DNA from: Shigella phage vB_SdyM_006
Sequence record: MK295204
Strand: one strand, 5' to 3'
DNA: 64,000 bases
Shown here piece after piece: positions 8,482 to 50,500 of the stretch. The position numbers and the translations under genes are program-made. The notes under the pieces are model-generated. The model was not told where the DNA came from. It did not search any database and worked only from the letters and a program-made list of their open reading frames with translations. How positions within the stretch are numbered: position 1 is the first letter of the stretch; each line of letters begins with the position of its first letter.

Positions 8482-8509
8482 AAAAATGGGACCGTAAGGT
8501 CCCATTTTC
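8482..8509. terminator. bidirectional intrinsic terminator
   Basis: AAAAA, stem ATGGGACC, loop GTAA, stem GGTCCCAT, TTTT; between 8134..8478 (+) and gp54 (-). Confidence 0.6.
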
Positions 8510-9422
8510 AAATTAATCTTGTTACAGCTCCTATTCCTCCTCCAGCACCACCTAATCTTGTTAAATTTCTTAATGAAGAGCTTAAAGAGTTTTCTTCTGA
8601 AATTGTATCTATGGCACCAATTGCTTTTGATTCTAACCAATCAAGAGCTGCTTGCCTACCGACAGAACCTACCTGCATCACCCTGTATGCGAATGTAACA
8701 TCAAAAACAGCAATAGTATTATTATCTTCATATGAAAGTTCAGGAGCACCTACCGACATAGGAACACACCCTGTGAACATGGCAACAGTATGTGGAAGAC
8801 CGTTTCTATTGTGTAAATTAACCTGGATATCGGCTTCAACATCTATAGGTAAAGCACGTAGTCCTGTGATTGGGTCTTCAACTGAATTCACCCAATCTTG
8901 CATAGCTCGATAATTACTTGCTTCTGAATCCATCCTAAACGAAATTATCAACGGGTCATATTCTCTAGATAGAACTTTTATATTAGGTGAATTATGATTT
9001 TTATCCATCTCATAAGATAGTCTGTTTTCTGGTAATTTGACAGAATAAACCATTAACCCAGATGTTGGAAATGCCATATTAAAGAAATCTAATAGATAAG
9101 TCCCTACTTCAAATTCTCCTAATAATGATTGAACCACACGATTAGACATGGCTCCTAAAAGATATTTAGAAACACCAGATTTTCTCACTAGTTTTTGAGT
9201 ACCAGCAACAACTAGACTTGATACTGCACTAGTTACATCATTTTGAGATATTCCAAGAAAATCTGTATCTATAGGTAAATTGTTAAACAAAAAACCACCA
9301 AAATTATCTAAAAGCTCATTAGTTTTTGATGATGGGGCTGTGGCAAAAACAACACTAAACATGTTTGTTCTTTGGAAGTCAAGATTGACAGCTTGGCTTT
9401 TAAATTCTTCTAATGTATACAT
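8508..9422 (-). CDS. 54: baseplate tail-tube initiator gp54-like
   Basis: 304 aa; position and size fit T4 gene order 29-48-54. Confidence 0.65.
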   Translation of the reverse strand: MYTLEEFKSQAVNLDFQRTNMFSVVFATAPSSKTNELLDNFGGFLFNNLPIDTDFLGISQNDVTSAVSSLVVAGTQKLVRKSGVSKYLLGAMSNRVVQSLLGEFEVGTYLLDFFNMAFPTSGLMVYSVKLPENRLSYEMDKNHNSPNIKVLSREYDPLIISFRMDSEASNYRAMQDWVNSVEDPITGLRALPIDVEADIQVNLHNRNGLPHTVAMFTGCVPMSVGAPELSYEDNNTIAVFDVTFAYRVMQVGSVGRQAALDWLESKAIGAIDTISEENSLSSSLRNLTRLGGAGGGIGAVTRLI

Positions 9423-10465
9423 TATAACAATCCTTCTGCAAACAAAGTTCCACGATTTAGTGTTAAAATCTCTCTAAACGTTATTTCAAGAGTAAACGTA
9501 CTTGGTAAATTTGGGGCCATGGCTAGACCATTAAAATGTCCATTAGGAGATTTGTCAAATCTTATACTAGAAATCTGGGCTGGTCCAAATATATCAGTTC
9601 GGCCATCATAAGAAGATGTTTTACCAAAATTTCGTATAACCCATATTGTTGGGTTACTTACAACAAGAACATTAGTTAAAAAACTTGTAATATTTTCCAA
9701 TATTGTTCCTGAAGTATCAGCACCGTCTGGGGTATTAGGATTTATTAATGTTGTTTTATACCATTCATCAATAGCGGCTTTAATTTCTTTAGCAAATTTA
9801 GACACACCTGTTTCACCATAAGAGAAATAACTAAATATTTCGTAAATATACAAAATTTGTATAAGGTCTTGTGGAGTCCTTGGTGTTAAATGCCAGGTAA
9901 AAACTTTAGTTCTATTATCCGCTCCAGCATACATAGATCTAGCTGTAGTATAAATTTGTTCGCCTTTATCAGCCATAATTCCTTGTGTAATCGAATCTAA
10001 TGCACCAAAAACAGCCGTTGACGCAACATTACTCAAAGCACCTGTTACGCTACCACCACCTTTAGTTAATAAAGAATCTCCAACATCATTAAATCTATGA
10101 GAAATGTTATCTACGTCAGATTGACTTCTTGGCATTAATATATTAGCAACAGATTCTTGACTAAAGGTGGTTGTCCCACCTTTTTTAGAAAAATCAATAT
10201 TAATTGCGTCAACGGCATTTTGTTTTTTTCTAAAGTCTCTTAATGAGCCTGTATCGCGTGCATTATAATTATATGCAGTAAATAACAGCCCGTTTTTATA
10301 TAAGTCATTAAGTCTAAAATCTAAAGCATTATCTGTACCAGAGGCTCGTTCTGCTGGAAACTGAGCCACTAATGTTTTGGTTTGAGTATTTGTTGGATTA
10401 GAAGACCCAGCAGATATTTTTGTTCCTATTTTCTCTACTTCTTCATCCAGAACTTTTATTTTCAT
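9422..10465 (-). CDS. 48: baseplate tail-tube cap gp48-like
   Basis: 347 aa; synteny between gp29 and gp54. Confidence 0.65.
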   Translation of the reverse strand: MKIKVLDEEVEKIGTKISAGSSNPTNTQTKTLVAQFPAERASGTDNALDFRLNDLYKNGLLFTAYNYNARDTGSLRDFRKKQNAVDAINIDFSKKGGTTTFSQESVANILMPRSQSDVDNISHRFNDVGDSLLTKGGGSVTGALSNVASTAVFGALDSITQGIMADKGEQIYTTARSMYAGADNRTKVFTWHLTPRTPQDLIQILYIYEIFSYFSYGETGVSKFAKEIKAAIDEWYKTTLINPNTPDGADTSGTILENITSFLTNVLVVSNPTIWVIRNFGKTSSYDGRTDIFGPAQISSIRFDKSPNGHFNGLAMAPNLPSTFTLEITFREILTLNRGTLFAEGLL

Positions 10466-12186
10466 TAATTAACCTCTAAAGCTTTATACATGCCAGGAGC
10501 AGCATATCCTGTTACAGGATTTTGTTGAATAACAGTCTTATTATTAGCTACATTGTTTTGGACATTAGCTGTATTTGTGGTCGTTTGAGATGATGTTTCT
10601 GTTGTTTCTATATTATTGATATTTTCTGCACTTGTGTAAGCTTGAGATTCTTTAGGATCTTCAGGTTTAATAGATGGGATCTGCTCTAATAACAAATCTG
10701 ATCTATCTAATGCATCTATTCCTAATTTATAATAATCCGAATCGACTTCAACATCTTGGTTATCAACAATAGAACTTGCAAGTTCTCTTAATTCGCCAGC
10801 TATTTTAGTTAAAGCCTCTGGGTTATTTCTATGAGCTTCAGATAAGGCCATTAATTGATTTAATCTAGCTTCAGTTTTTACTTGTTCTTCTATATCGCCC
10901 ATTTCTGGTGCAGATTCATCTTGCTTTTTAGCTAAAGCAATAGCCCTATCAGCATCTTCTCTACTTATAACATTATTTTTTACATAAGTGTTTGCAGCTT
11001 CTTCTATAGACCCACCTGTAAATCTTGCTCTAGCTTTTATCATTGATAAATAGCCTTCATCATCACTTTTGGCGGTATTTCTAATGTCGTTACCACGAAC
11101 TTTAGCCATTAACTTAAGTTCATCTTCGTTAGGCATATAACCTGTATTTTTATTATATGCTTCTATAGTTGCAACTTCTAATTCGTCAGCCCAGTCGTCC
11201 TGCCCTATAGCTCGTAATAATGAAGATAACATTTTTCCTAATGCGTACTGTAAGCCTTGTAAAAGATTTTCTAAAACGTTTACCATACCTTTTACAATGG
11301 CTAATGCTAAATTACCAAAATCGCCTTCTTTCCAGAATTTTTTGACATCTTCTAGTGTAGCAAATATAGAACGCAATATCGGGGCTAGTGGTCCAAGTTT
11401 TTCTTCAAAATCGTCAAAGGCTTCATTAAATAATTTACCCCAATATTTAAAATGAATCATTATAAGGTCCATAGCTAATACTATAGCCAACATTATTGCT
11501 GCCCATTTGGCAGCAAACAACGCCGCTGTTACAGTGTATTTAAACAACATATCAGCTATTCTGTTTGTCATCCCATAAGCAGATTTGAACCCAGTTTTAA
11601 CATTTTTATTTAAAGAATTTAAAACTTTAGATAAAGAGTCTTTTTCTTTATTGTCATCTTTAGGTTCTTTCTTTTTCTTCTCTTCTTCTGGGACCGGTGC
11701 TCTATCGACGTCATCTCTTCTAATAACAAGGTCTTTAATAGCAGATTCTAGTTTATTATCTTCAACCGGAACAGGGAGTTTAGAAAAAGCTTCTTCGGTC
11801 TCAGAAACTTCTGGTTCTACAATTTCCTGTTTTTCTGGTTTAAATTTTTCTTTTAACATATTACTTAATTTAGATATGTTCGAAGAAAAAGAATTTGATA
11901 ATTTAGAATTACTTGTTGCTAAGTCTTTTAAGTTATTATTTGTTTCTTGACTAGAATCTATTAATAACTCAACACCAGCTTGAACATCTTCTACAGAAGA
12001 AACAACTTTAGAAGTCCCAGATTCTACGGTTTCTGCAACTAGCTCAATACCATTTGATAAGTCATCTAAAGAATCAGAAACATTAAGCATAGAGTTAGCA
12101 ACATTTTCTTGGCCTTTAGATTCTTTAGATATTTTATTTTTTTCTTCTATTACTTTATTTCTTCTAAACGAATCAGGTGTTTTCAT
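10465..12186 (-). CDS. 29: baseplate hub / tail length determinator gp29-like
   Basis: 573 aa (T4 gp29 about 590 aa); synteny. Confidence 0.65.
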   Translation of the reverse strand: MKTPDSFRRNKVIEEKNKISKESKGQENVANSMLNVSDSLDDLSNGIELVAETVESGTSKVVSSVEDVQAGVELLIDSSQETNNNLKDLATSNSKLSNSFSSNISKLSNMLKEKFKPEKQEIVEPEVSETEEAFSKLPVPVEDNKLESAIKDLVIRRDDVDRAPVPEEEKKKKEPKDDNKEKDSLSKVLNSLNKNVKTGFKSAYGMTNRIADMLFKYTVTAALFAAKWAAIMLAIVLAMDLIMIHFKYWGKLFNEAFDDFEEKLGPLAPILRSIFATLEDVKKFWKEGDFGNLALAIVKGMVNVLENLLQGLQYALGKMLSSLLRAIGQDDWADELEVATIEAYNKNTGYMPNEDELKLMAKVRGNDIRNTAKSDDEGYLSMIKARARFTGGSIEEAANTYVKNNVISREDADRAIALAKKQDESAPEMGDIEEQVKTEARLNQLMALSEAHRNNPEALTKIAGELRELASSIVDNQDVEVDSDYYKLGIDALDRSDLLLEQIPSIKPEDPKESQAYTSAENINNIETTETSSQTTTNTANVQNNVANNKTVIQQNPVTGYAAPGMYKALEVN

Positions 12187-12691
12187 TTTGGAATAATCCT
12201 AATATGTCGTCGCCATAAACAACTTTGTCTTCAAGGTTTATAGCAATACTTTTTCCAAGTTCATCAGCCCATTTATACACAAAAGCTGGCATACTACCAA
12301 AATCAACTTTTTCTAAACATAATGTTTCTAAAAGTTCTTTAGCTGAAGTGAATCTTTCTCCTGGTAATATGTCTCTAAATTTATATTCTTTTCCTTGATA
12401 AGTAAATTTAGGTGTTGGTAATAGATAAACATCATTTATTGAGTAAGTTTTATCTTTATATACGAATGTGTCTGTACATTTACCATTAAATTCGGCTAAA
12501 TGAAGCAAGACTAAATGAGCTTCTTTAAATGACAAATTTTTATCTACAGAATCAAGAACTATTTTTAAAGTATCTTCTGGAGATTTAGCTTCTTTGAATT
12601 TGTCATAATAATTAAGTCCGAGTTTAGGAATTGTTAATTCTTTTCCATTTATATTAATCTTCTTCAGTGGAAGAATTATCTTTAATTTCAT
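12173..12691 (-). CDS. 28: baseplate hub distal subunit gp28-like
   Basis: 172 aa; synteny. Confidence 0.6.
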   Translation of the reverse strand: MKLKIILPLKKININGKELTIPKLGLNYYDKFKEAKSPEDTLKIVLDSVDKNLSFKEAHLVLLHLAEFNGKCTDTFVYKDKTYSINDVYLLPTPKFTYQGKEYKFRDILPGERFTSAKELLETLCLEKVDFGSMPAFVYKWADELGKSIAINLEDKVVYGDDILGLFQNENT

Positions 12692-13799
12692 TTTTTACCT
12701 TAATATGATCTACTGGTTTAAGAATTTTACTATTACTGAACATGTAAATATGTGTAAAACTCTGATTATTAGACATTTCATGTATAACAGAATCTACATA
12801 AAAAGTACTTAAGAACTGATTCTTAGGGTCATAGAATTCTAATTTATTTCCAGGCGTTATATCAAAATCCCCATAAGTTGTACATTTTGCATAGGAATCA
12901 TATTGAGCCATTGTATTTAATTTAGTCGCTTCTTCATACCCATTTCTAAATAACTGATCTGAATACCCGCCATTTCTCGAAACTAAAATAGAATTTTCGC
13001 CATTTCCATTCACTATCCTAGTACAAGTTTTATCAATCATACTAAAAGAATATATAGTCGAGTTTTCGTATGGGTTTCTATTATGAGAATTTGTTTTTGT
13101 TATCCATTCAAAATCATATGCAAGTGGATATTCAAGTTGATCTGCAAATTGTCCAACCATTAACGGTTCTCCGACTACCATTTCCTTAACTTTTGAATTA
13201 ATGATTTGTTGGAAATCTGTGACGTGGATCCCATTAAAATCATCCCAAACCAAAGCAAACATATCAGATGCAACAGAAATACCAGTATCTCTAACATAGT
13301 CCATATATTCCTTAATTCCAAGAACCCATGGAACTAAAGGAACGTGAATATTCGTGCCAGTGATCGTAGGTTTCAATAAAGGGGTGTCGGTATATAAAAC
13401 ATTTATCATTTCTTCTATAGTCTCTGTGGCGTTCTTGAAGAACACTCGACTAAATTTAAGATTTTTATTTTTATACGGTGGAATCAATTGCATTGTAATA
13501 ATGTTATCGCCTTTTTGATCAACTGATACAGAAGAATATTTTACGGCATAAATTCTATTTTTAGTTATTGATGTATTTGCATTACCTACAGAAATTTGGA
13601 TTATTTGGTCTCCATCTAATTTAGTATGCATATTTTTATGATCGTAAATTTGTAACATCCCTTCGTTGGTCCCGTATAAATCATCTCTAATTGTCAACGA
13701 AGTAAAAGTTCCTGCTAATTCTATAAATCGGTTTTCTAACCAAGCATCATAACTTTGGTATAATTTTATCGATATATTAGGATAACCCACCTTTTGCAT
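12654..13799 (-). CDS. 27: baseplate hub subunit gp27-like
   Basis: 381 aa (T4 gp27 391 aa); synteny. Confidence 0.65.
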   Translation of the reverse strand: MQKVGYPNISIKLYQSYDAWLENRFIELAGTFTSLTIRDDLYGTNEGMLQIYDHKNMHTKLDGDQIIQISVGNANTSITKNRIYAVKYSSVSVDQKGDNIITMQLIPPYKNKNLKFSRVFFKNATETIEEMINVLYTDTPLLKPTITGTNIHVPLVPWVLGIKEYMDYVRDTGISVASDMFALVWDDFNGIHVTDFQQIINSKVKEMVVGEPLMVGQFADQLEYPLAYDFEWITKTNSHNRNPYENSTIYSFSMIDKTCTRIVNGNGENSILVSRNGGYSDQLFRNGYEEATKLNTMAQYDSYAKCTTYGDFDITPGNKLEFYDPKNQFLSTFYVDSVIHEMSNNQSFTHIYMFSNSKILKPVDHIKVKNEIKDNSSTEED

Positions 13800-14550
13800 G
13801 TTTTTTGTCCTTTAAATCTTTTTCTATTAATGCTAATGTGATTGTCCTGTTCATTGGGGTCATTTTCTCTATATCGTTTAGAGAATAGCCTTGTTTAACC
13901 ATGATATGATTAATTTTATAAAATGCTATAATTTCCTCTTCAGACAAAATTATTTTAAACAGGTCTAAAATGTTTCTATATACCATTTCGTGAGTATCAC
14001 AACAACTAAATTTAACAGGGATATAAATTGGATATATCTCTTTTATTATTTGTTCAAAATCATCTAGAGAAATAACAGACATAACAAGATTTTTATTCTC
14101 TTGGTCTAAATCTTCCCATATATAAGAACCATTATTGTCTTCAATTTTATATATACAGCTGTCAAATAATTTTTTTATATCAGTTGTCATTATATCTGTA
14201 AAATCAAAATGAATTTTTATTCCTGAAGTTTCTAGAACAGGTCTTTTAAGTCTTTTCAATTCTAAGTTTAAAAAGGTCTTCTTTTCTTTACCACATTTAG
14301 GGCATTTAAAACGTATAGGAAGAACAGATTTACCAATAGATGAAGTAAACCAAATTATAAATGCATAAGCTCTATATATTTTTGGCATATAAGGAAATGA
14401 CTCTTCTAATAATTCATCTAGTATTTGTTCTGCTTCTTCTTGATTTTTTTCTATTTCACTCCGTACAAATAATAATTGTAAATAATCATCATTAGTAAAC
14501 TGACGAATTCTGTATGTTTTTTCTGGTGTGACTATTCTTATTATGTTCAT
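13777..14550 (-). CDS. 51: baseplate hub assembly catalyst gp51-like
   Basis: 257 aa; first gene of leftward late operon; TATAAATA upstream. Confidence 0.6.
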   Translation of the reverse strand: MNIIRIVTPEKTYRIRQFTNDDYLQLLFVRSEIEKNQEEAEQILDELLEESFPYMPKIYRAYAFIIWFTSSIGKSVLPIRFKCPKCGKEKKTFLNLELKRLKRPVLETSGIKIHFDFTDIMTTDIKKLFDSCIYKIEDNNGSYIWEDLDQENKNLVMSVISLDDFEQIIKEIYPIYIPVKFSCCDTHEMVYRNILDLFKIILSEEEIIAFYKINHIMVKQGYSLNDIEKMTPMNRTITLALIEKDLKDKKHAKGGLS

Positions 14551-14566
14551 AGTGTCTCCTCTTATT

Positions 14567-14574
14567 TATTTATA
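14567..14574 (-). promoter_or_regulatory. late promoter TATAAATA for gp51 operon
   Basis: Exact TATAAATA on minus strand, 17 nt from gp51 ATG. Confidence 0.6.
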
Positions 14575-14578
14575 AATA
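14571..14578 (+). promoter_or_regulatory. late promoter TATAAATA for gp26-gp25
   Basis: Exact TATAAATA on plus strand, 18 nt before gp26 ATG; overlaps minus-strand copy. Confidence 0.6.
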
Positions 14579-14595
14579 GATAAAAAGGAGACACT

Positions 14596-15180
14596 ATGTT
14601 TGAAATAACATGTAACGACATAACATACAACGCTAGATATTTCACTCTAGACGAATACGAGGACGTTCTTAATAAAATAACTGATAATAATATTAAAGAC
14701 GCCATTAGTGGGCTCTTAATTGATTGTATAGACTCCTACGATACAAACTTGCCTAAACACTATGCAGAATGTATTTTTCTTAAATTATGGGCTCACAGTT
14801 TAGGTGGAGTAACTAAAGAACTAAATGATATTTTTGTTAATTTTAATTATATAGAAACACCTAAAGAAAAAGGATTTATTTACAAATTAGATGGATTGAG
14901 TCTCAAAATGAGATATCCAAAATTATTTGAAGACTCTGATAAATTAGAAATGGTCATAAATTGTATTGACTCAGTATTATTAGAAGACCAAACAGAAATT
15001 AAAGCTTCAGAGCTTTCTTCAGATGATTTAAACGTTTTATATTCATACTTGACGAAAGACGTAATTTTTTCGTTAAGAGACGAATTACTTAGACCTAAAC
15101 CGTATATCGCTTTTCCTGTTGATGACGAAATTAAAACAATAGAAGGGTTTAAAAATTTATTAGAGGTGATAGATGAGTAA
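14596..15180 (+). CDS. 26: baseplate hub subunit gp26-like
   Basis: 194 aa; AGGAG RBS; directly upstream of gp25. Confidence 0.65.
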   Translation: MFEITCNDITYNARYFTLDEYEDVLNKITDNNIKDAISGLLIDCIDSYDTNLPKHYAECIFLKLWAHSLGGVTKELNDIFVNFNYIETPKEKGFIYKLDGLSLKMRYPKLFEDSDKLEMVINCIDSVLLEDQTEIKASELSSDDLNVLYSYLTKDVIFSLRDELLRPKPYIAFPVDDEIKTIEGFKNLLEVIDE

Positions 15181-15559
15181 AATGAATGTTTTATATTCTG
15201 ACTTAGACCCTAAAATGGAAAAAGGCTGGGATAAAGACCTGCATAAAGTCGTAGGAGATAGGGCTGTCAAAAATTCTATTCTAGGAATAATTAGTACTAG
15301 GAAAGGGTCTAGACCCTTTGACCCAGAATTTGGGTGTAATATAACAGACCAATTATTCGAAAATATGAGTCCATTAATAGAAGACACTATAGAGCGATCT
15401 ATAGTTTCGGCTATTAAAAATTATGAGCCAAGAGTACAAAGATTAAAAGTTTCTGTTACTGCATTGTATGATTCAAATTCTATAGTTGTAGATATTATTT
15501 TTTCTATTGTAGATAATCCAGACACATTAGAACAGATAAAAGTTCAATTATCAAAATAG
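15173..15559 (+). CDS. 25: baseplate wedge protein gp25
   Basis: 128 aa; motif TRKGSRPFDPEFGC and overall co-linearity with T4 gp25. Confidence 0.9.
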   Translation: MSKMNVLYSDLDPKMEKGWDKDLHKVVGDRAVKNSILGIISTRKGSRPFDPEFGCNITDQLFENMSPLIEDTIERSIVSAIKNYEPRVQRLKVSVTALYDSNSIVVDIIFSIVDNPDTLEQIKVQLSK

Positions 15560-15760
15560 TTTACTATAGTTATTAATTTATTACTTAATAGTTATATATA
15601 ATATATAAAGAACTTAATAAAATAATAAAAATTCTGGAGCTGCGCTCCAGATTTCTTTAGAAATAGTAACATATAGTTATTAATTTATTACTTAATAGTT
15701 ATATAGAATATACTATACTTTTAATAAATTAATTTACTAGAGTTACTATTAATAGGCTAT
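15560..15760. repeat. AT-rich intergenic repeat region, copy 1
   Basis: Two copies of ATAGTTATTAATTTATTACTTAATAGTTATATA (from 15566 and 15673); about 85 bp near-identical to 52358..52441. Confidence 0.8.
15634..15650 (+). terminator. hairpin inside repeat region
   Basis: Stem CTGGAGC, loop TGC, stem GCTCCAG, then ATTTCTTT. Confidence 0.5.
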
Positions 15761-15798
15761 TATAATAAAATGGTTATAATGAATCATTTGGAGGAACT

Positions 15799-16209
15799 AT
15801 GAATTTAGAAGAATTACAAACAATGTTATCAGAAGATTTAAGAATTGATCCATTAAAACTTCAATATGAAGCTGCAAATAATCCAACATTATATGGAAAA
15901 TGGTTAAAAATTTATTCTGATATAAAGAAAGGAATTATTTCTTATGAAGCTAATAAGAAAAAACTTTTAAAACAAAGATTAGACCATTATACTGGACGTG
16001 GTGATGAAGTGTGTATGGACTTATATGAAAAATCAGAACTTAAAACTGTTATTGCAGCTGACCCAGAAATTTTGAAAACACAAACATCTGTGGAATATAG
16101 AACATTATTATTGGATTTTGCATCAAAAGCTTTAGATGCTATTAAAGCCCGTGGATTTAGTATTAAGCACATTCTAGAATGTAGACAATTTGAGGCAGGA
16201 ACAAAATGA
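15799..16209 (+). CDS. uvsY: recombination mediator UvsY
   Basis: 136 aa; KLQYEAANN and LLDFxSxALDAIKxRGFxIKHI match T4 UvsY. Confidence 0.9.
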   Translation: MNLEELQTMLSEDLRIDPLKLQYEAANNPTLYGKWLKIYSDIKKGIISYEANKKKLLKQRLDHYTGRGDEVCMDLYEKSELKTVIAADPEILKTQTSVEYRTLLLDFASKALDAIKARGFSIKHILECRQFEAGTK

Positions 16210-16577
16210 CAAGCATTGATGTATTGAATCAACAGATTGATTTAGCTTCTTCAATTGAAGGAATTACTGACAAAACTCCTGTAATAAAATCAATGAAACA
16301 CTATTTAAGAGATATAAATAATATTAAGCCAATGGCTGAAGGTATACTTAAAAGTAATAAATTACCTGATTATACATTATCTCAAATCATTGAAGAACTA
16401 AAAGGATGGGCTATGGACCATATTTGTGTAGTTTGTAAAAAGCCTATTGATGAGAGTTTAGTTATCTATAACGATAATAATGAACCTGTTCATCCGGGGC
16501 CTTGTTATAATTTTGCTAAAGAACAACCTGTAACAGAATCAGGTCATTCTTTAAATGAAGTAGAATTATTAATGTAA
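16206..16577 (+). CDS. hypothetical Cys-rich protein downstream of uvsY
   Basis: 123 aa; CVVCKK...HPGPCY suggests zinc ribbon. Confidence 0.5.
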   Translation: MTSIDVLNQQIDLASSIEGITDKTPVIKSMKHYLRDINNIKPMAEGILKSNKLPDYTLSQIIEELKGWAMDHICVVCKKPIDESLVIYNDNNEPVHPGPCYNFAKEQPVTESGHSLNEVELLM

Positions 16578-16583
16578 AAAATA

Positions 16584-16609
16584 AAAGACGAGGGTTACTC
16601 GTCTTTTTC
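16584..16609. terminator. bidirectional terminator
   Basis: Stem AAAGACGAG, loop GGTTAC, stem CTCGTCTTT, flanked by A- and T-runs. Confidence 0.55.
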
Positions 16610-16816
16610 TGTTTCTAAATCTTCTAATTCTAATCTCTTGCCTTCTAAGGCATCTCTTATAGAGATATCATCAGTATCTTTAATTTCTAATTCTTTTATA
16701 CGTTTAGAATAATATTTTTCTAATTCGTCTAAACCAGCCAATGTTTGACATTCTCTTATTTTGTTCATAAAAGTTTCGACACTAGCTTCGATTAAAATAT
16801 CTTTAAATTTTAACAT
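16595..16816 (-). CDS. UvsW.1-like small protein
   Basis: 73 aa directly downstream of uvsW. Confidence 0.5.
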   Translation of the reverse strand: MLKFKDILIEASVETFMNKIRECQTLAGLDELEKYYSKRIKELEIKDTDDISIRDALEGKRLELEDLETEKDE

Positions 16817-18315
16817 AATTTTACCTCTCTCATAGAATAATCAAATTGTTCACTTGCATACCTTTCTATACGTTCTAAAGCGTGTTTTAATGCATAATTT
16901 AAATGTACATATTTCTTTTTAGAATTTTTAGATTTAGGTTTTACACCCATGTCATCTACAATGTCCCAAAGAACACCTTCAGCTTTAGAACCATGTAATC
17001 TAAGAACACGTCCAATAGATTGTAATACGGTTACTTTTGATTTAATTGGGTGTGCAAATATAACATGGTGTAAATTTTTTATAGATACACCAGCACTGAA
17101 AACACCATAAGAAGCGACTACAACCATCCCTGAGCGTTTTTCTGCTAAGGCCTTTATAATATCTCTATCTTTGTCTTTAACTTCTCCTGCGATAAAGAAG
17201 ACGTTTTCTTCGCCATATATAGCCTTACATGCCTCGTATAGATCTTTACCATGGGCTATTCTATCAAACATAACAAACACATTTTCATTTTTAGATGCTA
17301 ATTTACATGCAAGTTTAGCTATCCATTCATTACGCTGTTTAGCTTTAATAATGATTTTAATTTCATCTTGATACGAAAATCCTTTAACTTTTTCTGTAAA
17401 CGCATCCGGGTATCTTAAAAACAAAGTATTAATTTTAAGTTTAGACACTTGTCCTGCTTCCATTAGTTCAGCCGTGGACACTGGTTTGTATATATCTCCA
17501 AATAATCCGATATATTGCATTACATTAGCTTTGCCATCTTTAACGGTTCCTGTTAGCCCGAATTTAAATTTACAGTTGTTTAATCCGTTAATAATAGTAC
17601 TAATACTTTTACCAGTCGCTAAATGACACTCATCATTCATTAACATTCCAAATTGACTAAACCATTCTTTTGGTTGCTTAATAGCTGTCTGCCAGGTTGA
17701 TACGTAAACCAAAGCATCAGAATCTTTAGCTGTACCGCCTTTTATTCCTAATAACATTTCTTTAGAAAATAGTCTATAGTCGACTAAGTCATCAATCATT
17801 TGTTTAACAAGAATAGTTGTTGGAACTAAAATTAAAACTTTACCTTGAAAGTTTTCTATATAATAACGTGCTAAGAGCGCCTGGATCAACGATTTACCAG
17901 CTGATGTAGGTAAATTCAATAAAGCTCTATTTTGTGTTAAGCCTTTAACTACAGAATCTTTTTGATACCAATGAGGCGTTATCTTAGATGACCCAGAATA
18001 TATTTCTTTAGAATCTATCCAATCAGAAACTTCTTTTTCAGTAATATCGCCATTATCATATATTTTAGGATCCGTTTCTACAGTATAGTCCATATTAGAA
18101 GCAAACTTTTTAACATAGTTCACAAGCCCGTATGGTAATAAGCCGTCATACCCTAAAATTCTAATCTTGCCGTCCCATTGACCATATTTAAATTTTGGAT
18201 TAAATTGGTACCCAGGAGTTTCGAAAGAGAAATAATCTCTTAATTCAAAGAACACAGAATCTTCACACTCGATTTTTACACTACTATAATCGTAAAACTT
18301 TAATTTAATATCCAT
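16810..18315 (-). CDS. uvsW: DNA/RNA helicase UvsW
   Basis: Strong co-linearity with T4 UvsW from MDIKLKFYDYS; helicase motifs LNLPTSAGKS and DECH; track ORF has 13-codon extension, start placed at MDIK. Confidence 0.9.
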   Translation of the reverse strand: MDIKLKFYDYSSVKIECEDSVFFELRDYFSFETPGYQFNPKFKYGQWDGKIRILGYDGLLPYGLVNYVKKFASNMDYTVETDPKIYDNGDITEKEVSDWIDSKEIYSGSSKITPHWYQKDSVVKGLTQNRALLNLPTSAGKSLIQALLARYYIENFQGKVLILVPTTILVKQMIDDLVDYRLFSKEMLLGIKGGTAKDSDALVYVSTWQTAIKQPKEWFSQFGMLMNDECHLATGKSISTIINGLNNCKFKFGLTGTVKDGKANVMQYIGLFGDIYKPVSTAELMEAGQVSKLKINTLFLRYPDAFTEKVKGFSYQDEIKIIIKAKQRNEWIAKLACKLASKNENVFVMFDRIAHGKDLYEACKAIYGEENVFFIAGEVKDKDRDIIKALAEKRSGMVVVASYGVFSAGVSIKNLHHVIFAHPIKSKVTVLQSIGRVLRLHGSKAEGVLWDIVDDMGVKPKSKNSKKKYVHLNYALKHALERIERYASEQFDYSMREVKLC

Positions 18316-18329
18316 TACTTTCACCTTGT

Positions 18330-18337
18330 TATAAATA
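18330..18337 (+). promoter_or_regulatory. late promoter TATAAATA for inh-like/hoc
   Basis: Exact TATAAATA 33 nt before ATG at 18371. Confidence 0.5.
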
Positions 18338-18343
18338 CATATA

Positions 18344-18351
18344 TATTTATA
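18344..18351 (-). promoter_or_regulatory. late promoter TATAAATA upstream of uvsW
   Basis: Exact TATAAATA on minus strand about 29 nt before uvsW ATG. Confidence 0.45.
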
Positions 18352-18370
18352 CAAAGCCTAAGAGGACATT

Positions 18371-19084
18371 ATGAAAATTGATCAACAATATATTGATTCT
18401 TTAACTGAAGAATATACTTCAGGCGAAATTGATAGAAAAACAGCTAAACAAAAATTAACAGATTATGCTAAAGAATCTTTTAATTTTGATTTAAACAAAC
18501 AAAAAAGTTTTGAGAATATGATTGTTCAGCTTAAAGAAATGATCGATAATTATGTAGAACCCGAATTAGAAGAACAAGATGGAATTTCTATTAAAGATCT
18601 AATTACCGCAGCTGACCAATTAGATGGTAAAAGTGTTTTTAATGATGCCAATGAAGAAGCATTAGAATTACTTTCAGATGTTTCTTATGATGGAATTAAA
18701 CCAGATTTGGTAATTAAAACACCCCAACCACAAATTACTAAAGAAGAAATTATTGATAAACCAGAAAAATCTTTAATAAGTAAGAATTTAGAAGTTAAAG
18801 AAGAAATTAAATCCCAAGAATATATGCCGGAATCGGCAAAATATGTTCTTCCTGATGGGTTCTCTCCAACTATTACATTAATTGGTAAAACTCCTGGATA
18901 TTATACTCTTCCATGGTGGATTTATCAATGGATTTTAGAAAATGAAGATTGGAAAGATAGGCCAGAAGAATGCCCCGAGTATTCAGCTATTAATATTTTA
19001 AAATCATTGATTTACTTTATTAATAGAGATGGACAGGTCAAAATTAGAGAAACAAGAAATTCAAGATTTTATACCCTAAAATAA
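18371..19084 (+). CDS. acidic protein at the inh position
   Basis: 237 aa (T4 Inh 226 aa); position immediately upstream of hoc; no sequence confirmation. Confidence 0.4.
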   Translation: MKIDQQYIDSLTEEYTSGEIDRKTAKQKLTDYAKESFNFDLNKQKSFENMIVQLKEMIDNYVEPELEEQDGISIKDLITAADQLDGKSVFNDANEEALELLSDVSYDGIKPDLVIKTPQPQITKEEIIDKPEKSLISKNLEVKEEIKSQEYMPESAKYVLPDGFSPTITLIGKTPGYYTLPWWIYQWILENEDWKDRPEECPEYSAINILKSLIYFINRDGQVKIRETRNSRFYTLK

Positions 19085-19093
19085 GGATTATAT

Positions 19094-19918
19094 ATGAGTA
19101 TAGTACTAAAATTAACACCAGAGAACCCTAAAATTACTATAGGAGAATCTCAAGAATTCACCATGACTACAGAGAATCAAACAGATGAGACTCTAAAATA
19201 TGAATGGTATATTAATGAAGACATATATGAAGCCACAAATAAAAATATGACATATACACCTGATAAATCAGGTGAATTTATTATAAAATGTAAAGTATCT
19301 TCTTTAGGATTAGAAGGGGAAACCGTTTTAGGCGAAGAATCCACCACTTTAACTGTAAATCTTAAAACTATAACCGATTTGACGACAAATATTACAGGCC
19401 CAAAAGAAGCAGAATATGGCGAAGAATTTGAACTTGTTGTAAATGCTGAAACTACAGCAGAATCTCCTAAATATACATATAAATGGTCTAGTGGTGAAAC
19501 TACAAAAAAAATAAAGGTAATTGAATCTGAAGAAGGTGAAAAAACTTTTACATGTACAGTAACATGTAAATCAACTAATTATGAACCCGCTACTTCAACA
19601 TCAGAACATAAAGTTTCTATATCAAAACCCGTAGTTCCTGAACCAGATCCGTCTTGTGAATCATGTAGATATATTCATCCTTTAGACCATAGAGAATCAG
19701 CATATTTATGGGTAGGATACTGGGTACTAGAAGAAATAGAAAAAGCCGTGGAAGAAGGAATTGATTGGAAGAAGCCAGATGATACTGATCTAAAATATAA
19801 ATGTGATTTGAAGACCCTCGCATTTATGTTAGAAAAATACCCTAATGTAGATGTACAAGAATCAAGAAATGGATATATCTTATCTAAAGACGATATTGAA
19901 AATGGGGTTATTTACTAA
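19094..19918 (+). CDS. hoc: outer capsid protein Hoc (two Ig-like domains plus capsid-binding C-terminus)
   Basis: C-terminus HPLDHRESAYLW...DVQESRNGYI matches T4 Hoc; two Ig-like repeats rather than three. Confidence 0.85.
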   Translation: MSIVLKLTPENPKITIGESQEFTMTTENQTDETLKYEWYINEDIYEATNKNMTYTPDKSGEFIIKCKVSSLGLEGETVLGEESTTLTVNLKTITDLTTNITGPKEAEYGEEFELVVNAETTAESPKYTYKWSSGETTKKIKVIESEEGEKTFTCTVTCKSTNYEPATSTSEHKVSISKPVVPEPDPSCESCRYIHPLDHRESAYLWVGYWVLEEIEKAVEEGIDWKKPDDTDLKYKCDLKTLAFMLEKYPNVDVQESRNGYILSKDDIENGVIY

Positions 19919-19920
19919 AC

Positions 19921-19947
19921 AAAAAAGGGACCAATTGGTCCCTTTTT
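19921..19947. terminator. bidirectional terminator after hoc
   Basis: AAAAAA, stem GGGACC, loop AATT, stem GGTCCC, TTTTT. Confidence 0.6.
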
Positions 19948-19951
19948 ATTT

Positions 19952-20221
19952 TTATTTTCTAAAGATCTTACCAAATTTGCTAATCACAAAATTCTCACCA
20001 ACTTTAATATCGATACGAATAGAAACATGTCCTATTGTATCAGTATTCAACATATCACTTAAAGACATTGAAGAATGTCTTTCGAAATCTTCAACAATAT
20101 TAAACCCATCATTATCACAATGAGTGTCAATAAATTCTTTAAGCTTTACTGAGCTTCCTTCAGATAAAATAGGGTCATTATAGAAACGACAAGATGATTC
20201 AAATAATTTTAAAGTAACCAT
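19952..20221 (-). CDS. hypothetical protein (89 aa)
   Basis: Track start is TTG at 20281; ATG at 20221 has AAGGAG RBS. Confidence 0.5.
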   Translation of the reverse strand: MVTLKLFESSCRFYNDPILSEGSSVKLKEFIDTHCDNDGFNIVEDFERHSSMSLSDMLNTDTIGHVSIRIDIKVGENFVISKFGKIFRK

Positions 20222-20281
20222 GATATTCTCCTTTGTTGTTGATGTAAGTATAGTAACACTACACAAAGGAGATGTAAACAA

Positions 20282-22345
20282 TTAAATAATAAATTTTTCT
20301 GGGACAAAAGTAAGATCAACAGCTGTTGATAATAATTCTAGCCCTTTTTGACTAATTTTACCAGTATTTTCTTTTAAGAATTCTTTAAACCCAATTTTTT
20401 CGATTTTTCCTTCAGATAAAAACTTATTTCCGTCAATAAGTTCGCTTTCATCTAGTAATTCTGGATCCACTACAGATGTTTCTACTAATATTGGTCTATT
20501 AAATTCTATATCACGAGCGTTTTCATAACCGTGGATAGAATGAATCTTAAGAGCTAAACCTCTAGGTAAAATCACCTCGCATTCACTAGAGTATTTTGAC
20601 ATATTACCAGGAATAATAACATTGACTTTATGTGCACCTTTAATAGTTATACCCATAGAAATGTTAATATCTGTTTTCTTAGTTGCTTTCTTACCATTAA
20701 CGGCTACACCAATATTTTTTGGTGTCATAACTGTTGATATAACATCATCGAATGTTTCGGATTCAAAAGTTACTGTAGTCGCGTTAGGTTTAATATTATC
20801 AAGAACATCATTTCGTTCCCCAAAAATAATTGGAGCTAATGAAGTCGAAATATAATTAGGAAAATATAATGTTTTATTTTTAGCAGCTTTTTCTACGTCG
20901 GCATAAGGTAATTTTTGTGCTCTATATAAAATAGTTCCTTTTTCTAACTTGGTTCCTTTTTTGAAGGCCCCATCTAAGACAGGAATTTTGTTTTCATACA
21001 CAGATTTTAAACTTTTATCTTTACCAAGCAAAAAGTCGTTCATTTCTTCATATCCACGTAAAGCATAATCTGTGATAACTTTTCGCTCTTCTTCTGTTAA
21101 ATCCATTTCTGTTTCGGTTCTAAATAACTCTTCTAAAGGAGTATAGAAAACATTTCTGTTTAAAGCAGAGATACAGCCTCTTAAAGCTCTAGTCTTAGCC
21201 ACATTATCGTCAGGTCCATATGTTTCTAAATCTTCGGCTATTTTTTTGTAAACATCCATAGCATTATTAGAAGTTTTGAGCGCATTGTTAATTATCAATA
21301 TATACGGTTTTGCTAATTTATATTTTTCTTCACTAGATAAATGATAAAAATTTTCAACACCATACCCAGATATGCGTTCTAAAGAATCTAATAAAAATCT
21401 AGCTTCTAGATCTGATTCTTCTTCACTCACGGCCGAATTTATTTTATCTAAAAACACAGATTTAGATTCATCAATTTTATTAAGGACATTTTTATGAACT
21501 AATGCAATTTTTGTAGAATCACTTTGGACAATAGGAGGATTATCTTGTAGTTCAATATATTTTCTTCTTCCTTCTTCAGAATAATTTTCTAAGTCTTCTG
21601 GTTTAGAAACACCATACATTGCTGATAATAATTCACGTCTAGAAACTTTAGTTTTTGAAATGACAGATCGTTCACTTCTTGTGTTTTCTTGTGCTGCAAT
21701 ACTTCCTGCAATGGCTTCTAATTTAGACACTTGCTTGCCAGTTTTGTCATTGATATACACATCACCTACTTTAGAATCGACTTTAGTATATAAGTCAGAA
21801 TCAATACCAGGAATCCCAGCGATGTCTTCTAAAGGTCTGTTTTTACGATATATTAAAACATAAGCATGTTTACCTGTAAATTGATACAAATCTTCTAAGA
21901 CAACAAATTTACCACCAGTACGTTGCATAGCCAGACGTTTGATTATTCTTTGTAATGTCTTTTCTTGGCCTTTCATTTTTTTAGCAGGGAATCTAAATAA
22001 AACTGCGTCCATTTTAAGTTTTTTAACTTGTTCGTATACAGTGTCAAAAATAGTATTCAATGCCCCAATAGGGTCTGAGCCTAAACCATTTCTTAATTCT
22101 GCTGCATTACCATTTTTAGACAAACTCATCAAAAACACTTGAACAAATTTATCACCTTGCTTTACTGCTTTTAATGCATCGCCTTTAGATAAATAAGACA
22201 CCATTCTAACTAAAAGATTGTCATTTCCAGGAACACTGACATTCCATAATTGAGGGACCTTAGCCCTTTTATTAAGATTAATAGCTTTATATTGAGCTAT
22301 TTCTGAATCAAAAACCTCATTTAAATTAATTTCATTTAATTCCAT
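20282..22345 (-). CDS. alt: ADP-ribosyltransferase Alt
   Basis: 687 aa (T4 Alt 682 aa); R-S-E type motifs YRAQ, YISTS, ECEVILPRG; late promoter upstream. Confidence 0.85.
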   Translation of the reverse strand: MELNEINLNEVFDSEIAQYKAINLNKRAKVPQLWNVSVPGNDNLLVRMVSYLSKGDALKAVKQGDKFVQVFLMSLSKNGNAAELRNGLGSDPIGALNTIFDTVYEQVKKLKMDAVLFRFPAKKMKGQEKTLQRIIKRLAMQRTGGKFVVLEDLYQFTGKHAYVLIYRKNRPLEDIAGIPGIDSDLYTKVDSKVGDVYINDKTGKQVSKLEAIAGSIAAQENTRSERSVISKTKVSRRELLSAMYGVSKPEDLENYSEEGRRKYIELQDNPPIVQSDSTKIALVHKNVLNKIDESKSVFLDKINSAVSEEESDLEARFLLDSLERISGYGVENFYHLSSEEKYKLAKPYILIINNALKTSNNAMDVYKKIAEDLETYGPDDNVAKTRALRGCISALNRNVFYTPLEELFRTETEMDLTEEERKVITDYALRGYEEMNDFLLGKDKSLKSVYENKIPVLDGAFKKGTKLEKGTILYRAQKLPYADVEKAAKNKTLYFPNYISTSLAPIIFGERNDVLDNIKPNATTVTFESETFDDVISTVMTPKNIGVAVNGKKATKKTDINISMGITIKGAHKVNVIIPGNMSKYSSECEVILPRGLALKIHSIHGYENARDIEFNRPILVETSVVDPELLDESELIDGNKFLSEGKIEKIGFKEFLKENTGKISQKGLELLSTAVDLTFVPEKFII

Positions 22346-46113: not shown

Positions 46114-46383
46114 TTAAAATAAGAAATCTAATGTATTCATTGTAAAAGATTTACGAACAGATGGACGAAGCTCGTTGTTTTCTAAAGCTTCTTTAGTAAT
46201 TTTATCAACTATAGCACCTGGTAAATACTTATTACATAAATTGTATGGAATAGAATTTTCTTCTAACCAATTTGTAGAAGCTTCTAAATAAGAAGCTCCT
46301 TCTTTAACTTTTTGTTCAATTAAAGCTCCAACTAATGTTGGGTCTTCTATATCAATATTATTGGTTTGGGAACAAAGAGTCAT
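46114..46383 (-). CDS. 33: late transcription co-activator gp33-like
   Basis: 89 aa between 59 and dsbA; synteny only. Confidence 0.5.
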   Translation of the reverse strand: MTLCSQTNNIDIEDPTLVGALIEQKVKEGASYLEASTNWLEENSIPYNLCNKYLPGAIVDKITKEALENNELRPSVRKSFTMNTLDFLF

Positions 46384-46627
46384 ATAAATCTAATGCCTCG
46401 TCAGTTTCTGCTTCGAATCGTTCACGAGTTTGTTTATGGTAAATTGCAAATACACGATTCCACATTTTAGAATCAACACCTAATTCGTCTTTGGCTTGGT
46501 TTTTAATGTCTTTAATTTTTTCGGCGTATCCTTCCATAATAGTTTTTTGGTCAGATGCATCTTTAATCATTGCTGCTAATTTTTCACCATGGACTGCTTC
46601 ATCAAATTCAATTTTTTCTTTAGACAT
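46358..46627 (-). CDS. dsbA: dsDNA-binding protein DsbA-like
   Basis: 89 aa (T4 DsbA 89 aa) between rnh and 33; synteny. Confidence 0.5.
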   Translation of the reverse strand: MSKEKIEFDEAVHGEKLAAMIKDASDQKTIMEGYAEKIKDIKNQAKDELGVDSKMWNRVFAIYHKQTRERFEAETDEALDLYDSLFPNQ

Positions 46628-46635
46628 AATTACCT

Positions 46636-47553
46636 CTAAAACATGTTAATATCTTTAGTTAATTTAACTAAACCGGATTTTATAAAATATGGATAAATTT
46701 TACTTCTTCCAGGAACTTTAAAATTATCAAACTCATCAATAATTTTTGTTTTAATATCTTCTGGAATACAAGTCATATCTATCATAATCTTGTTTTCATT
46801 AAAGCGTTTAAGTTCTTCTTCAGAAAGATGTTTTTCTGGACCATCGTCTAAACAATCTTGAATTAACTTAGACGAAATACTTGGTGCACGTTCACCTTCT
46901 AAACGAGTAAACCAGTAGTCTGAACGGCATTTTACACCAGCTACAGCATCTTTTCTATCACCTTTAAGAAGTTTAGTCATTAAAAACTCTGGGATAGGTT
47001 CTTTTGATTTAACCATCTTTTTAAGTTGTGGTGCCCATTGTTCAACATTATTATGTATATGCAATTGTTTATAGTCACCATCTGAAGAAATAATCATTAT
47101 TTTTCTGTCTAAACATTCTCTAAGAGTAAGAACGCCGATAATATCATCAGCTTCAACTCGTGGAATGTCAATAGAATAATAAGGCATATTATCTTTAAAT
47201 TCGGCTTTAATTATTTCCATTGCTGAAAAATAACCTTCCCAATCAAAAGAAGTATTATCTTCACGGGCGGCTGCACGTGTTTTCTTGTAATAATACCCGT
47301 AGTCTCGACGCCAATAGCCGTTATTAGCATTATCAAAAGCTAGCACTGTAATTGGATATTTGTCATTAAATTTTTTAAGATTGTACCTGATACTGTTTAA
47401 GATAATATGGCGTAACATCCCGATTTTAATAGGAACATTTTGGAATTCTTGTAAGGCTGAAGCTAATGCAATTTGAGACATATCAAAAAACTTAATTCCA
47501 GGTTTTTCGTCTTCTTCGTCTTCAAAAAATGCGCTTAAATTAACTTGATTCAT
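46636..47553 (-). CDS. rnh: RNase H (FEN-family 5'-3' exonuclease)
   Basis: FDMSQIAL, YWRRDYGYYYKK, IISSDGDYKQLH co-linear with T4 RNase H; track start is GTG at 47610, ATG at 47553. Confidence 0.9.
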   Translation of the reverse strand: MNQVNLSAFFEDEEDEKPGIKFFDMSQIALASALQEFQNVPIKIGMLRHIILNSIRYNLKKFNDKYPITVLAFDNANNGYWRRDYGYYYKKTRAAAREDNTSFDWEGYFSAMEIIKAEFKDNMPYYSIDIPRVEADDIIGVLTLRECLDRKIMIISSDGDYKQLHIHNNVEQWAPQLKKMVKSKEPIPEFLMTKLLKGDRKDAVAGVKCRSDYWFTRLEGERAPSISSKLIQDCLDDGPEKHLSEEELKRFNENKIMIDMTCIPEDIKTKIIDEFDNFKVPGRSKIYPYFIKSGLVKLTKDINMF

Positions 47554-47591
47554 AAATCCTCTAATAAATATAGTAAAGAAAGGAGCCATAT

Positions 47592-50500
47592 ATGACTTTA
47601 AATAAATCACTTAAAGCAACGTACGGACTTGATGCCTCTAATGAAAAAGTTATAAATGTCGGATTAGCTGACAAAAATACTTTAACAGATGGCGTTAATG
47701 TCGAATTTTTAATTCAAGAAAACACAATCCAAGCATACGACAAAAATCGTGGATATGAAAAAGGCTTTGCTGTTATATTTGAAAATAGAATTTATGTTTC
47801 AAATCAAAAAATAGAATCTCCAGCTGGAGATTTTGAGCCTCATAAATGGTTTTCTTTACGTGTAGACCCTAAATGGGACACGGTATTTGAAACCGTAGCA
47901 TCAGGTCAAATTATAACATCAGGACAGTTTATTGCAGCTAATACGTCAATAAACGATTTATATTTTAAATTGCCTAGAAAACCACAACCAGGTGATACAA
48001 TTTGTATCAAAGAGGTCTCTGGTAATTCAGGCTATAAGTTCCTTAAAATAGGTAAAACCGATAATAATATTTTATGGAACGGAACTAATGTTGAAGAATT
48101 ATATCTAACACGTCCGTATTCGCAAACTTATTTTATATTTTCTGGGAACGTTTGGAATGTATTTCAAATAGAGCACGAAGATATTGGTAGAATAATATCT
48201 ACTTCACCATTAAAGCAACAAGTTTCTTCTGGAGAGAGATTATATAGATTATCCAATACTGGTCCTATCAATATCATGTTACCTAAATATGCTATGCATG
48301 GTGATGTTATTGAGATGTTTGATATTGATGGATTAACTTCAATAAATCACTTAACTCTTTACACGTCTGAAGGGTCTGGGCATGCTATAGGAACTTTAGG
48401 ACAATCTAAATTAGAAATAAGAACTATTGGTAACGGGCGATTAGTATTTGATAGTTCTAATAATCTATGGAGATTATGGGACGGCGATATAAGAACTCGT
48501 TTAAAAACTATCAAAGAAGATCGTAAACTATTACCTAATGAACAGGTTCTTGTCTATGGGATGAATAATACAGTTAAAGAAACCGTCACTCTAACGTTAC
48601 CTAGAAATATTGCTGTCGGTGACACAGTTGAGATTTCTTTAGGTTATATGAGAAAAGGCCAGACAGTTATCATAAAGACTGAGGGCGATGATATTATTGG
48701 GACTGATAAAACATTATTACAATTCCCTAAACGATCTCAGTATCCGCCTGAAATGACCTGGGTTGAAGTAAAAGAACTTGTGTTTAATGGTACTGATGAT
48801 TATTTACCTTATTTAAAATTTGCGTATGTAGAAACATTATCTGATTTAGGGTGGGCAGTTCAACATTATCGTCCTAATGTTGAGCGTGTAGATTTTAAAA
48901 ATCCAGAAAGAATCGGATTGATAGCATTAGCTACTCAAGATCAAGCAAACAAAGATCATGAAAACAACCCAGAAAAAGAATTGGCTGTAACACCATTTAC
49001 TTTGGCAAATAGAGTTGCTACAGAAGAACGACGTGGTATTGCTAAAACAGCAAAAACTTCTATGGTCAATCAAAACTCAAATGGAAAATTTGAAGATGAC
49101 ACAATTGTCACACCTAAAAAATTAAACGAACGAACAGCTACAGAAGAACGACGTGGCCTAGCCGAAATTGCTACTCAAGAAGAAACAAATACAGGTAAAG
49201 ATGATACGACTATTGTTTCTCCATTAAAACTCGAGAACAGGAAAGCCTCAGAAACTTTATCTGGTATTGCTAAAATAGTCCCATCTAAAGGAACGCCAGG
49301 AACACAGCGTGATAAACAAGGAACTGGTGTTTATAATTACACGGATAATAAGACTATTGTTTCTCCTTCAGCTATACATGAGCTTTTAAGTACAGAAAAT
49401 TCTCATGGTGTTGTTTATTTAGCTTCTGAAACTGAAGTTATTGAAGCACCAGATATGGACCCTAAATTTCCTGTTGCTGTAACTCCGGTTCAATTACATA
49501 AGAAAACTGCTACAGAAGATAGAATAGGTTTCTCTCAAATCGCTACACAAGAAGAAACTGATGAAGGAACTGATAATTTTAAATTTATAACACCTAAAAA
49601 ATTAAATGATCGAAGATCAACAGAAACTTTAGAAGGTATCTCAAGATACGCTACTTATGAAGAGTTTAAAAAAGGTGATTCAAATTTAATATCCGAGCCT
49701 AATAAAATAAAACAGTTTTTACAAGAAGCAAGAATAAAAGTTGTTCCTGAATCTGGAATAGTTTTTACTGGTAATATTTGGGACACATGTAATTTTGATA
49801 TCAAACCTTCAACTGAAGTTGATAGAGGGACATTAAAATTATCAACTCAAGGCCAAGCTAATACTGGTGAAGATGATACAACAGCAATTACACCTAAAAA
49901 ATTACATAATAAAAAATCAACTGAATTGGTTGAAGGTATAATCCAACTTTCTAATTACGCTGAAACAATAGCAGGTGATGTTAATAATAAAGCAATATCT
50001 CCTCAGAATTTTGTTTTAGCTGTTCAAACAGAAAATAATGGATTAGAAGCCTCTACTTCTTTACGTGGATTTGTTAGACTGTTAGATGGTGCTAGTATTT
50101 GGCAAGGAACAGATGAATCTGGTAGTGACCCGGATAATGAAGACTTTTTGCATAATGGATATGCAGTATCTCCACGAGAATTAAATAAAGCTTTAAGTCA
50201 TTATCTTCCTATCAAAGGAAAAGCAGTTAACTCTACTTTATTTGATGACTTAAAAACTTCTGATTTTATTAGAAGAAACATAGACCAAGAAATTGATGGG
50301 GATATGACTTTTAATAACCCAGTTATTCTTAAAGATACATTAGTTTCTACAAGTTCTGGTAAATTTGAATCACTAGAAAGTAAAACGGTTTCTGTCGGTG
50401 ACGGTACTAAAGGTTCAATAAACTTTTTGTCTGCTACACCATGGAAAATTGATGTACAAGATGATTTCAAAATTAACAATGTAAAAATTGATAAAGATGA

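Follow-up and report, generated by a model that had tools for sequence, protein, structure and literature searches.

The 12-bp perfect palindrome TATTTATAAATA between genes 51 and 26 of Shigella phage vB_SdyM_006 is most probably a back-to-back pair of gp55-dependent late promoters of the T4 type, which overlap by 4 bp and are the orthologue of the pair found between genes 26 and 51 of T4. The orthology is read from the sequence comparison: the same genes stand head to head, the boxes are arranged in the same manner, and the arrangement is continuous through intermediate lineages. Exact TATAAATA boxes on both strands with four nucleotides in common had been proposed as divergent late promoters in the initial annotation, and all of its coordinates and gene names proved to be correct. 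Both boxes were recovered by a motif scan, and the location between gp51 and gp26 was confirmed by PHROGs, Pfam and the public annotation (Table 1). The assignment to divergent T4-type late promoters is well supported by the position and orientation of the boxes, by the genes of the late transcription machinery, and by the deep conservation of the 12 bases.

The window, by which we mean the whole analysed stretch of 64,000 nucleotides of sequence record MK295204, belongs to a T4-like virus of the family Straboviridae, genus Bragavirus. Its base composition is 31.4% G+C; approximately 94% of it is coding and 5.7% is non-coding. In megablast comparisons positions 13000-16000 were 99.8% identical to Proteus phage phiP4-3 and 99.0% identical to SJ_PmiM, and the Bragavirus relatives PM2 and Pm5461 were 85% identical over the same region. 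With T4 as a reference, the segment that runs from gene 54 to hoc (8508-22345) seems to have the opposite orientation with respect to the Alt-like gene and the early genes: alt comes after gene 54 in T4, whereas here the Alt-like gene (20282-22345, minus strand) comes after hoc. Judged by gene order, an inversion of the 54-hoc block relative to the neighbouring early genes is tentatively proposed as a difference from T4. Two terminator-like hairpins, each bordered by T-runs to the left and right, are called in both orientations at 15633-15651 and 16583-16607. The latter lies between the open reading frame (ORF) after uvsY and a small ORF downstream of uvsW, and fits the conserved bidirectional terminator described downstream of uvsW.1 (Nolan et al., 2006; PMC1524935).

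Table 1. Features of the two divergent promoter pairs, their flanking genes and related genes in the window (positions are those of the window).
Feature	Position	Strand	Remarks
gp51-gp26 start-codon spacer	14551..14595		45 bp, AGTGTCTCCTCTTATTTATTTATAAATAGATAAAAAGGAGACACT
Perfect palindrome TATTTATAAATA, 12 bp	14567..14578		two boxes, common TATA 14571-14574
Putative late-promoter box for gp26-gp25	14571..14578	+	predicted start site 14584
Putative late-promoter box for the gp51-27-28-29-48-54 operon	14567..14574	-	predicted start site 14561
Left arm of extended inverted repeat, CATAGTGTCTCCTCTT	14548..14563		gp51 start codon and Shine-Dalgarno complement
Right arm of extended inverted repeat, AAAAGGAGACACTATG	14583..14598		gp26 Shine-Dalgarno and start codon
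gp51, baseplate hub assembly protein	13777..14550	-	PF12322, PHROGs, phiP4-3 and Pm5461 annotation
gp26, baseplate hub protein or chaperone	14596..15180	+	PF12322, PHROGs, phiP4-3 and Pm5461 annotation
Putative late-promoter box for inh-hoc	18330..18337	+	predicted start site 18343; annotated promoter in Pm5461
Putative late-promoter box for uvsW	18344..18351	-	predicted start site 18338; annotated promoter in Pm5461
gp33, late-transcription co-activator	46114..46383	-	PF16805, E = 3.6e-21
dsbA (DsbA)	46358-46627		PF11126, E = 9.4e-25; overlaps the gp33 gene

T4 late promoters consist of nothing but an 8-bp box at -13 to -6 (PMC1524935; PMC2988020). Start sites were placed by extrapolating this T4 rule (PMC1524935) to the present phage, and the two predicted starts of the gp51-gp26 pair are then 23 bp apart. 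Each box lies 16-17 nt from its start codon on the correct strand. The predicted leaders comprise 12 nt before the gp26 AUG (AAAGGAGACACU) and 11 nt before the gp51 AUG (GAGGAGACACU), and begin 1-2 nt before the Shine-Dalgarno sequence. The DNA downstream of the boxes is A+T-rich (GATAAA on the plus strand and AATAAG on the minus strand, five of six positions being A or T in each), as in T4 late promoters. The same holds for the 8-bp TATAAATA box itself and for the presence of a late-gene orthologue (gp26, gp51, inh and uvsW) 16-33 nt downstream. With respect to the machinery, gp33 is encoded in the window, and gp55, gp45 and the clamp loader (gp44/62) are annotated in the congener Pm5461, their genes lying outside the window in the present phage. 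The gp51-27-28-29-48-54 operon is located downstream of the minus-strand box and gp26-gp25 downstream of the plus-strand box, so that one divergent late unit begins with gp51 and the other with gp26, and no other box is found upstream of either gene. A host-type promoter was also considered and rejected, as a scan of 14551-14595 found neither a sigma-70-like site nor a sigma-70-type -35/-10 pair.

The number of boxes in the window is in itself of little help. The whole window contains 11 TATAAATA boxes, compared to 17.1 expected from shuffling, i.e., there is no enrichment. Six of the 11 fall in the non-coding 5.7%, always with a start codon of the same strand 16-33 nt downstream; the genes concerned are gp51, gp26, inh, uvsW, an Alt-like ADP-ribosyltransferase and ORF 52566-53030, which should be gp36, as it comes after gp34 and gp35. 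With 73% A+T, the non-coding DNA yields 2.1 boxes when shuffled, and six or more are reached in 103 of 5000 shuffles (p ~0.02). The palindrome TATTTATAAATA occurs once in the window, and approximately three 12-mers with up to one mismatch are expected per window. Because A+T-rich non-coding DNA yields boxes when shuffled, evidence from the window alone is suggestive at most. Enrichment within the window was accordingly dropped as proof, given a total below expectation and the modest result of the non-coding shuffle. The decisive evidence is rather conservation in relatives, next to which counts in the window weigh little.

Another box-like sequence is seen at the junction of rnh and gene 34 (47551-47592). 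Taking the first in-frame ATG puts the rnh start 2 bp from the start of gene 34; the ATG at 47553, which is preceded by a GAGG Shine-Dalgarno sequence, is the more likely start and gives a spacer of 38 bp. A variant late box, AATAAATA, with A at -13, occupies 47563-47570 of the plus strand at a distance of 21 nt from the downstream ATG of gene 34, and directly adjoins the ribosome-binding site of rnh.

The T4 26/51 spacer contains the identical 12-mer (NC_000866, 116450-116461). It is also present in the spacers of nine further named phages, among them VR7, PS2, P545, CC31, STP4-a, Cronus and the Acinetobacter phages PhT2 and DLP1. The gp26 proteins of these phages share no more than 24-33% identity with that of the present phage. 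IMG/VR was scanned with gp25, the better-conserved neighbour, as the anchor, the gp26 alignment being without a conserved stretch. The exact 12-mer was found upstream of gp26 in 48 of the 58 gp25-anchored loci, in 37 distinct sequence contexts, and one of the remaining loci is truncated; by chance 0.0017 occurrences are expected per locus. The flanks have diverged, the commonest base just outside the 12-mer reaching only 38-50% across the loci. Within the genus, the spacer of Pm5461 is identical at 44 of 45 positions, compared to 85% over the surrounding 3 kb (P = 0.0065). A functionless match in DNA of 31% G+C, which the total box count below the shuffle expectation and the roughly three near-matches expected per window might have suggested, is refuted by the recurrence of the exact 12-mer at the same junction at such low gp26 identity, and its probability is vanishingly small.

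The conserved bases are informative with respect to the two strands as well. The four bases belonging only to the minus box (14567-14570) and the four belonging only to the plus box (14575-14578) are equally invariant, and therefore both boxes are under selection. This bears on the possibility that a single promoter works at the junction and that the other box has arisen incidentally, TATAAATA being nearly symmetric and the DNA rich in A+T. The box is indeed nearly self-complementary, about two chance boxes per window are expected in A+T-rich spacers, and RB49-like phages keep an exact box on the gp51 side only, from which it follows that the gp26-side promoter can move or weaken. However, the box-specific bases of both strands are invariant in the 48 loci while their neighbours drift, each of the two genes heads a divergent late unit that has no other upstream box, and lineages devoid of the 12-mer have rebuilt two boxes in a different layout. 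We consider a single working promoter quite unlikely.

The rebuilt layouts are of several kinds. The Aeromonas-type exceptions have a 10-bp palindrome, TATTTAAATA, which was found in three loci and also in phages phiAS4 and Riv-10. Morganella phage MP1 and Acinetobacter phage Ac42 have a 14-bp palindrome, TATAAATATTTATA, in which the boxes are face to face and overlap by 2 bp, and in Pseudomonas phage PspYZU05 the boxes are face to face with a 7-nt gap. Ac42 in addition retains a copy of the 12-mer with one mismatch. Its spacer (locus positions 1815-1845) contains three boxes in a row, TATAAATA on the plus strand, TATTTATA on the minus strand and TATAAATG, with one mismatch, on the plus strand, and could be taken for an intermediate form linking the 12-bp back-to-back and the 14-bp face-to-face palindromes. 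Judging from these variants, two tightly juxtaposed boxes persist at the junction whatever the layout, the exceptions being built from the same box. The CC31 record (locus 1034-1183) differs in another respect, as the annotated gp51 start leaves a spacer of 148 bp; an in-line upstream CAT behind GGAGACC lies at the usual distance from the palindrome, and gp51 as annotated is therefore probably too short.

A palindrome might also be kept mainly as the site of a dimeric protein such as DsbA, as a cruciform or as a recombination site, rather than as promoters. The symmetry of the 12-mer is perfect, DsbA is encoded in the window, and in T4 this protein has been reported on A/T-rich sites overlapping two late promoters (PMC2988020). 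Yet the two 8-bp boxes account for every conserved base, with none conserved outside them, and the alternative layouts seen in other lineages preserve the boxes and not a fixed palindrome. Furthermore, the affinity of DsbA is micromolar and its gene is non-essential (PMC2988020). Such a role is very unlikely, and the divergent promoter pair is the reading followed below. What speaks against the pair itself is that leaders of 11-12 nt are short, that the box is not enriched in the window as a whole and only modestly so in its non-coding DNA, and that not all of the 50 listed T4 late sites have been shown to work in vivo (PMC2988020); with these points weighed, the pair is still highly probable overall.

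The initial annotation had also pointed out a second divergent pair at 18330..18351, between uvsW and inh. Its boxes are exact and its location is as claimed; the boxes of this pair do not overlap, however, and it is not a copy of the first. The plus box stands to the left of the minus box, face to face across a 6-nt gap (18338-18343), in the arrangement WATAAATA-N6-TATTTATA. The predicted starts therefore cross, and the first 6 nt of either mRNA would be complementary to those of the other. The annotated ATG of uvsW is at 18315 (minus strand) behind an AAGGTG Shine-Dalgarno sequence, and inh starts at 18371 (plus strand). This arrangement recurs in Pm5461, Merlin (Moonvirus), F48 (Marfavirus), CIP9 (Kanagawavirus) and O157 typing phage 6 (Mosigvirus), and also in T4, where uvsW is now separated from the element by the mobile gene segE. 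The gap of 6 nt is exact in seven lineages, and the sequence of the gap and the lengths of the flanking leaders vary, which may point to some constraint on gap length. The gap is 11 nt in RB49. DLP1 has a back-to-back layout, which GuL6 matches only imperfectly. The uvsW-inh pair is a second composite of the same boxes, placed face to face over 6 nt.

If both pairs function as predicted, the promoters would be read by gp55 with gp33 as the co-activator and the sliding clamp gp45 as the activator. The plus box of the gp51-gp26 pair would drive gp26 and gp25, and its minus box the hub and tail-tube operon 51-27-28-29-48-54. As late promoters have no -35 element, each box would be a whole promoter. 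In cryo-electron microscopy structures late-promoter DNA is open between -12 and +2, the upstream duplex carries gp33, and gp45 surrounds the DNA at the upstream end and must do so in one polarity (PMC7892883). Projected on the gp51-gp26 spacer, the bubbles would extend over 14572-14585 and 14560-14573 with the central TA (14572-14573) common to both, and the upstream duplex of each promoter, where gp33 and gp45 are bound, would be the melted and transcribed DNA of the other. This overlap of bubbles and upstream DNA, as inferred from the published structure, implies that only one polymerase could be engaged at once. At the uvsW-inh pair the bubbles would extend over 18331-18344 and 18337-18350 and overlap by 8 bp, and simultaneous occupancy is probably sterically excluded at both pairs. 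The competition between initiation complexes that had been suggested in the initial annotation is a different matter, and beyond steric exclusion it may be negligible. At Escherichia coli bidirectional promoters competition is measurable only at high occupancy or upon strong activation of one direction (PMC12825309). Since an insertion or deletion anywhere in the 12 bp would cost at least one box, no further function is needed to account for the persistence of the 4-bp overlap.

In the present phage the symmetry extends beyond the boxes. The spacer together with both start codons (14548-14598) is a near-perfect palindrome of 51 nt, a feature that sets it apart from T4 and may stem from gene conversion between the arms or from selection. 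CATAGTGTCTCCT and AGGAGACACTATG are perfect inverted repeats, and the 13-nt AGGAGACACTATG is identical on both sides. A 67-nt read-through RNA is predicted to fold with -25.5 kcal/mol (plus strand) or -23.9 kcal/mol (minus strand), z being about -8, and with the Shine-Dalgarno sequence and the AUG paired. RNAs from the predicted late starts, on the contrary, are unstructured, with -3.4 and -3.2 kcal/mol and z about 0. In terms of geometry and predicted starts, the ribosome-binding site and the start codon would be sequestered and the late start would lie inside the hairpin. In T4 the lysozyme gene (e) and soc are under a translational control that combines a hairpin and a late promoter, and the spacer hairpin resembles these.

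The Bragavirus spacer might thus serve also as an RNA switch, in which the read-through hairpin would bury the Shine-Dalgarno sequence and the AUG and only the RNAs from the late starts would be translatable. The contrast between the two kinds of RNA, the identical 13-nt repeats and the near-identity of the spacer in two Bragavirus species are in favour of it. However, the fold is not maintained across the family: for 33 distinct spacers the native halves gave -11.2 kcal/mol compared to -11.8 kcal/mol for chimeras, and 4153 of 5000 re-pairings folded as well. As native halves are no better than chimeras, there is no family-wide selection on the hairpin beyond the automatic pairing of Shine-Dalgarno and anti-Shine-Dalgarno sequences, and the strong hairpin is Bragavirus-specific rather than a conserved feature. 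In addition, the region is flanked by bidirectional terminator-like hairpins. The switch is for these reasons an unlikely addition to the promoter pair. The spacer was also considered as a terminator, and this was rejected, since the hairpin is without a following T-run and the terminator scan reports none there.

Both gp51 and gp26 belong to PF12322 and to PHROG 150. In a profile-profile comparison they align over 192 columns, collinear from the N-termini, with 99.5% probability (E = 7.7e-23), and BLASTP of T4 gp51 against T4 gp26 gives E = 2e-6. By these similarities the two are head-to-head paralogs, and the palindrome is consequently the axis of a head-to-head paralog pair. The order of the genes is different in the RB43-like phage vB_EkoM5VN, where 51, 26 and 25 form a tandem on a single strand. 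The neighbour of gp25 is gp5/gp6, and not gp26, in Aeh1, a KVP40-type Vibrio phage and cyanophage syn9, and a tblastn search with gp51 returned nothing beyond RB43-like phages.

On a more speculative level, the element might be a polarity-sorting switch on the symmetry axis of an ancient head-to-head arrangement of these paralogs, although we regard this as rather unlikely. The gp45 clamp activates only promoters that face the same way as its interaction face; in such a scheme, clamps left in opposite orientations on the two daughter duplexes would act on one arm and on the other, respectively. Were this true, the split between 26-25 and 51-54 would be set by clamp polarity and the direction of replication rather than by polymerase competition, and the invariant 6-nt gap between uvsW and inh would be a second geometry constrained by the machinery.

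The promoter pair has close counterparts in well-studied viruses. The overlapping promoters of T4 genes 26 and 51, with divergent transcription of the base plate cluster, were reportedly mapped by Scarlato, Storlazzi, Gargano and Cascino in 1989 (Virology 171:475). T4 has the same flanking genes, the identical TATTTATAAATA and the same late machinery; its spacer is 50 bp compared to 45 bp here, and its box-to-start distances are 17-21 nt compared to 16-17 nt, i.e., the leaders are slightly shorter in the present phage. In Pm5461 (KP890823), the spacer of which differs at 1 of 45 positions, all four boxes of the two pairs are annotated as promoters at the corresponding positions; these features are MEME predictions that were manually verified, and the overlap is not discussed in the paper (Melo et al., 2016; PMC4923195). 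In RB69 an overlapping pair, Pl:118620(+) and Pl:118672(-), is listed just upstream of gp51 (Nolan et al., 2006; PMC1524935, Additional file 5). Other overlapping divergent late pairs, predicted by hidden Markov models, are listed for RB69, RB49, RB43 and Aeh1 (PMC1524935). At the RB49 junction the gp51-side promoter alone was predicted (PMC1524935), in agreement with the exact box seen in our comparison.

There is also a likeness to the bacterial bidirectional promoters described by Warman et al. (PMC12825309), in which a short, pseudo-symmetric, A+T-rich element is used on both strands, one polymerase excludes the other, and the divergent starts lie within approximately 25 bp. The preferred start-site spacings in that class are 18, 10 and 23 bp (PMC12825309), and the 23 bp predicted here is among these three. 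In contrast, the bacterial class uses sigma-70, whereas here the promoters would depend on gp55, show no -35 bias, be activated by a polar sliding clamp, and have a perfect consensus in both boxes. The element may therefore work alike, but by its sigma factor it would not be a member of the class.

As the same palindrome is present in T4, both pairs are annotated in a congener and the RB69 pair has been predicted, the element is already known. Its recognition in one more genome adds little to a known feature of T4-like phages, the T4 late system being among the best studied. The value of the observation is rather comparative. Two geometries, a 4-bp overlap back to back and a 6-nt gap face to face, are fixed across genera in which the flanking proteins are only about 25-45% identical, and a few lineages have alternative palindromes. 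Such natural variants could be used to probe promoter interference by a clamp-activated polymerase that makes no -35 contact, as well as the choice of direction by clamp polarity.
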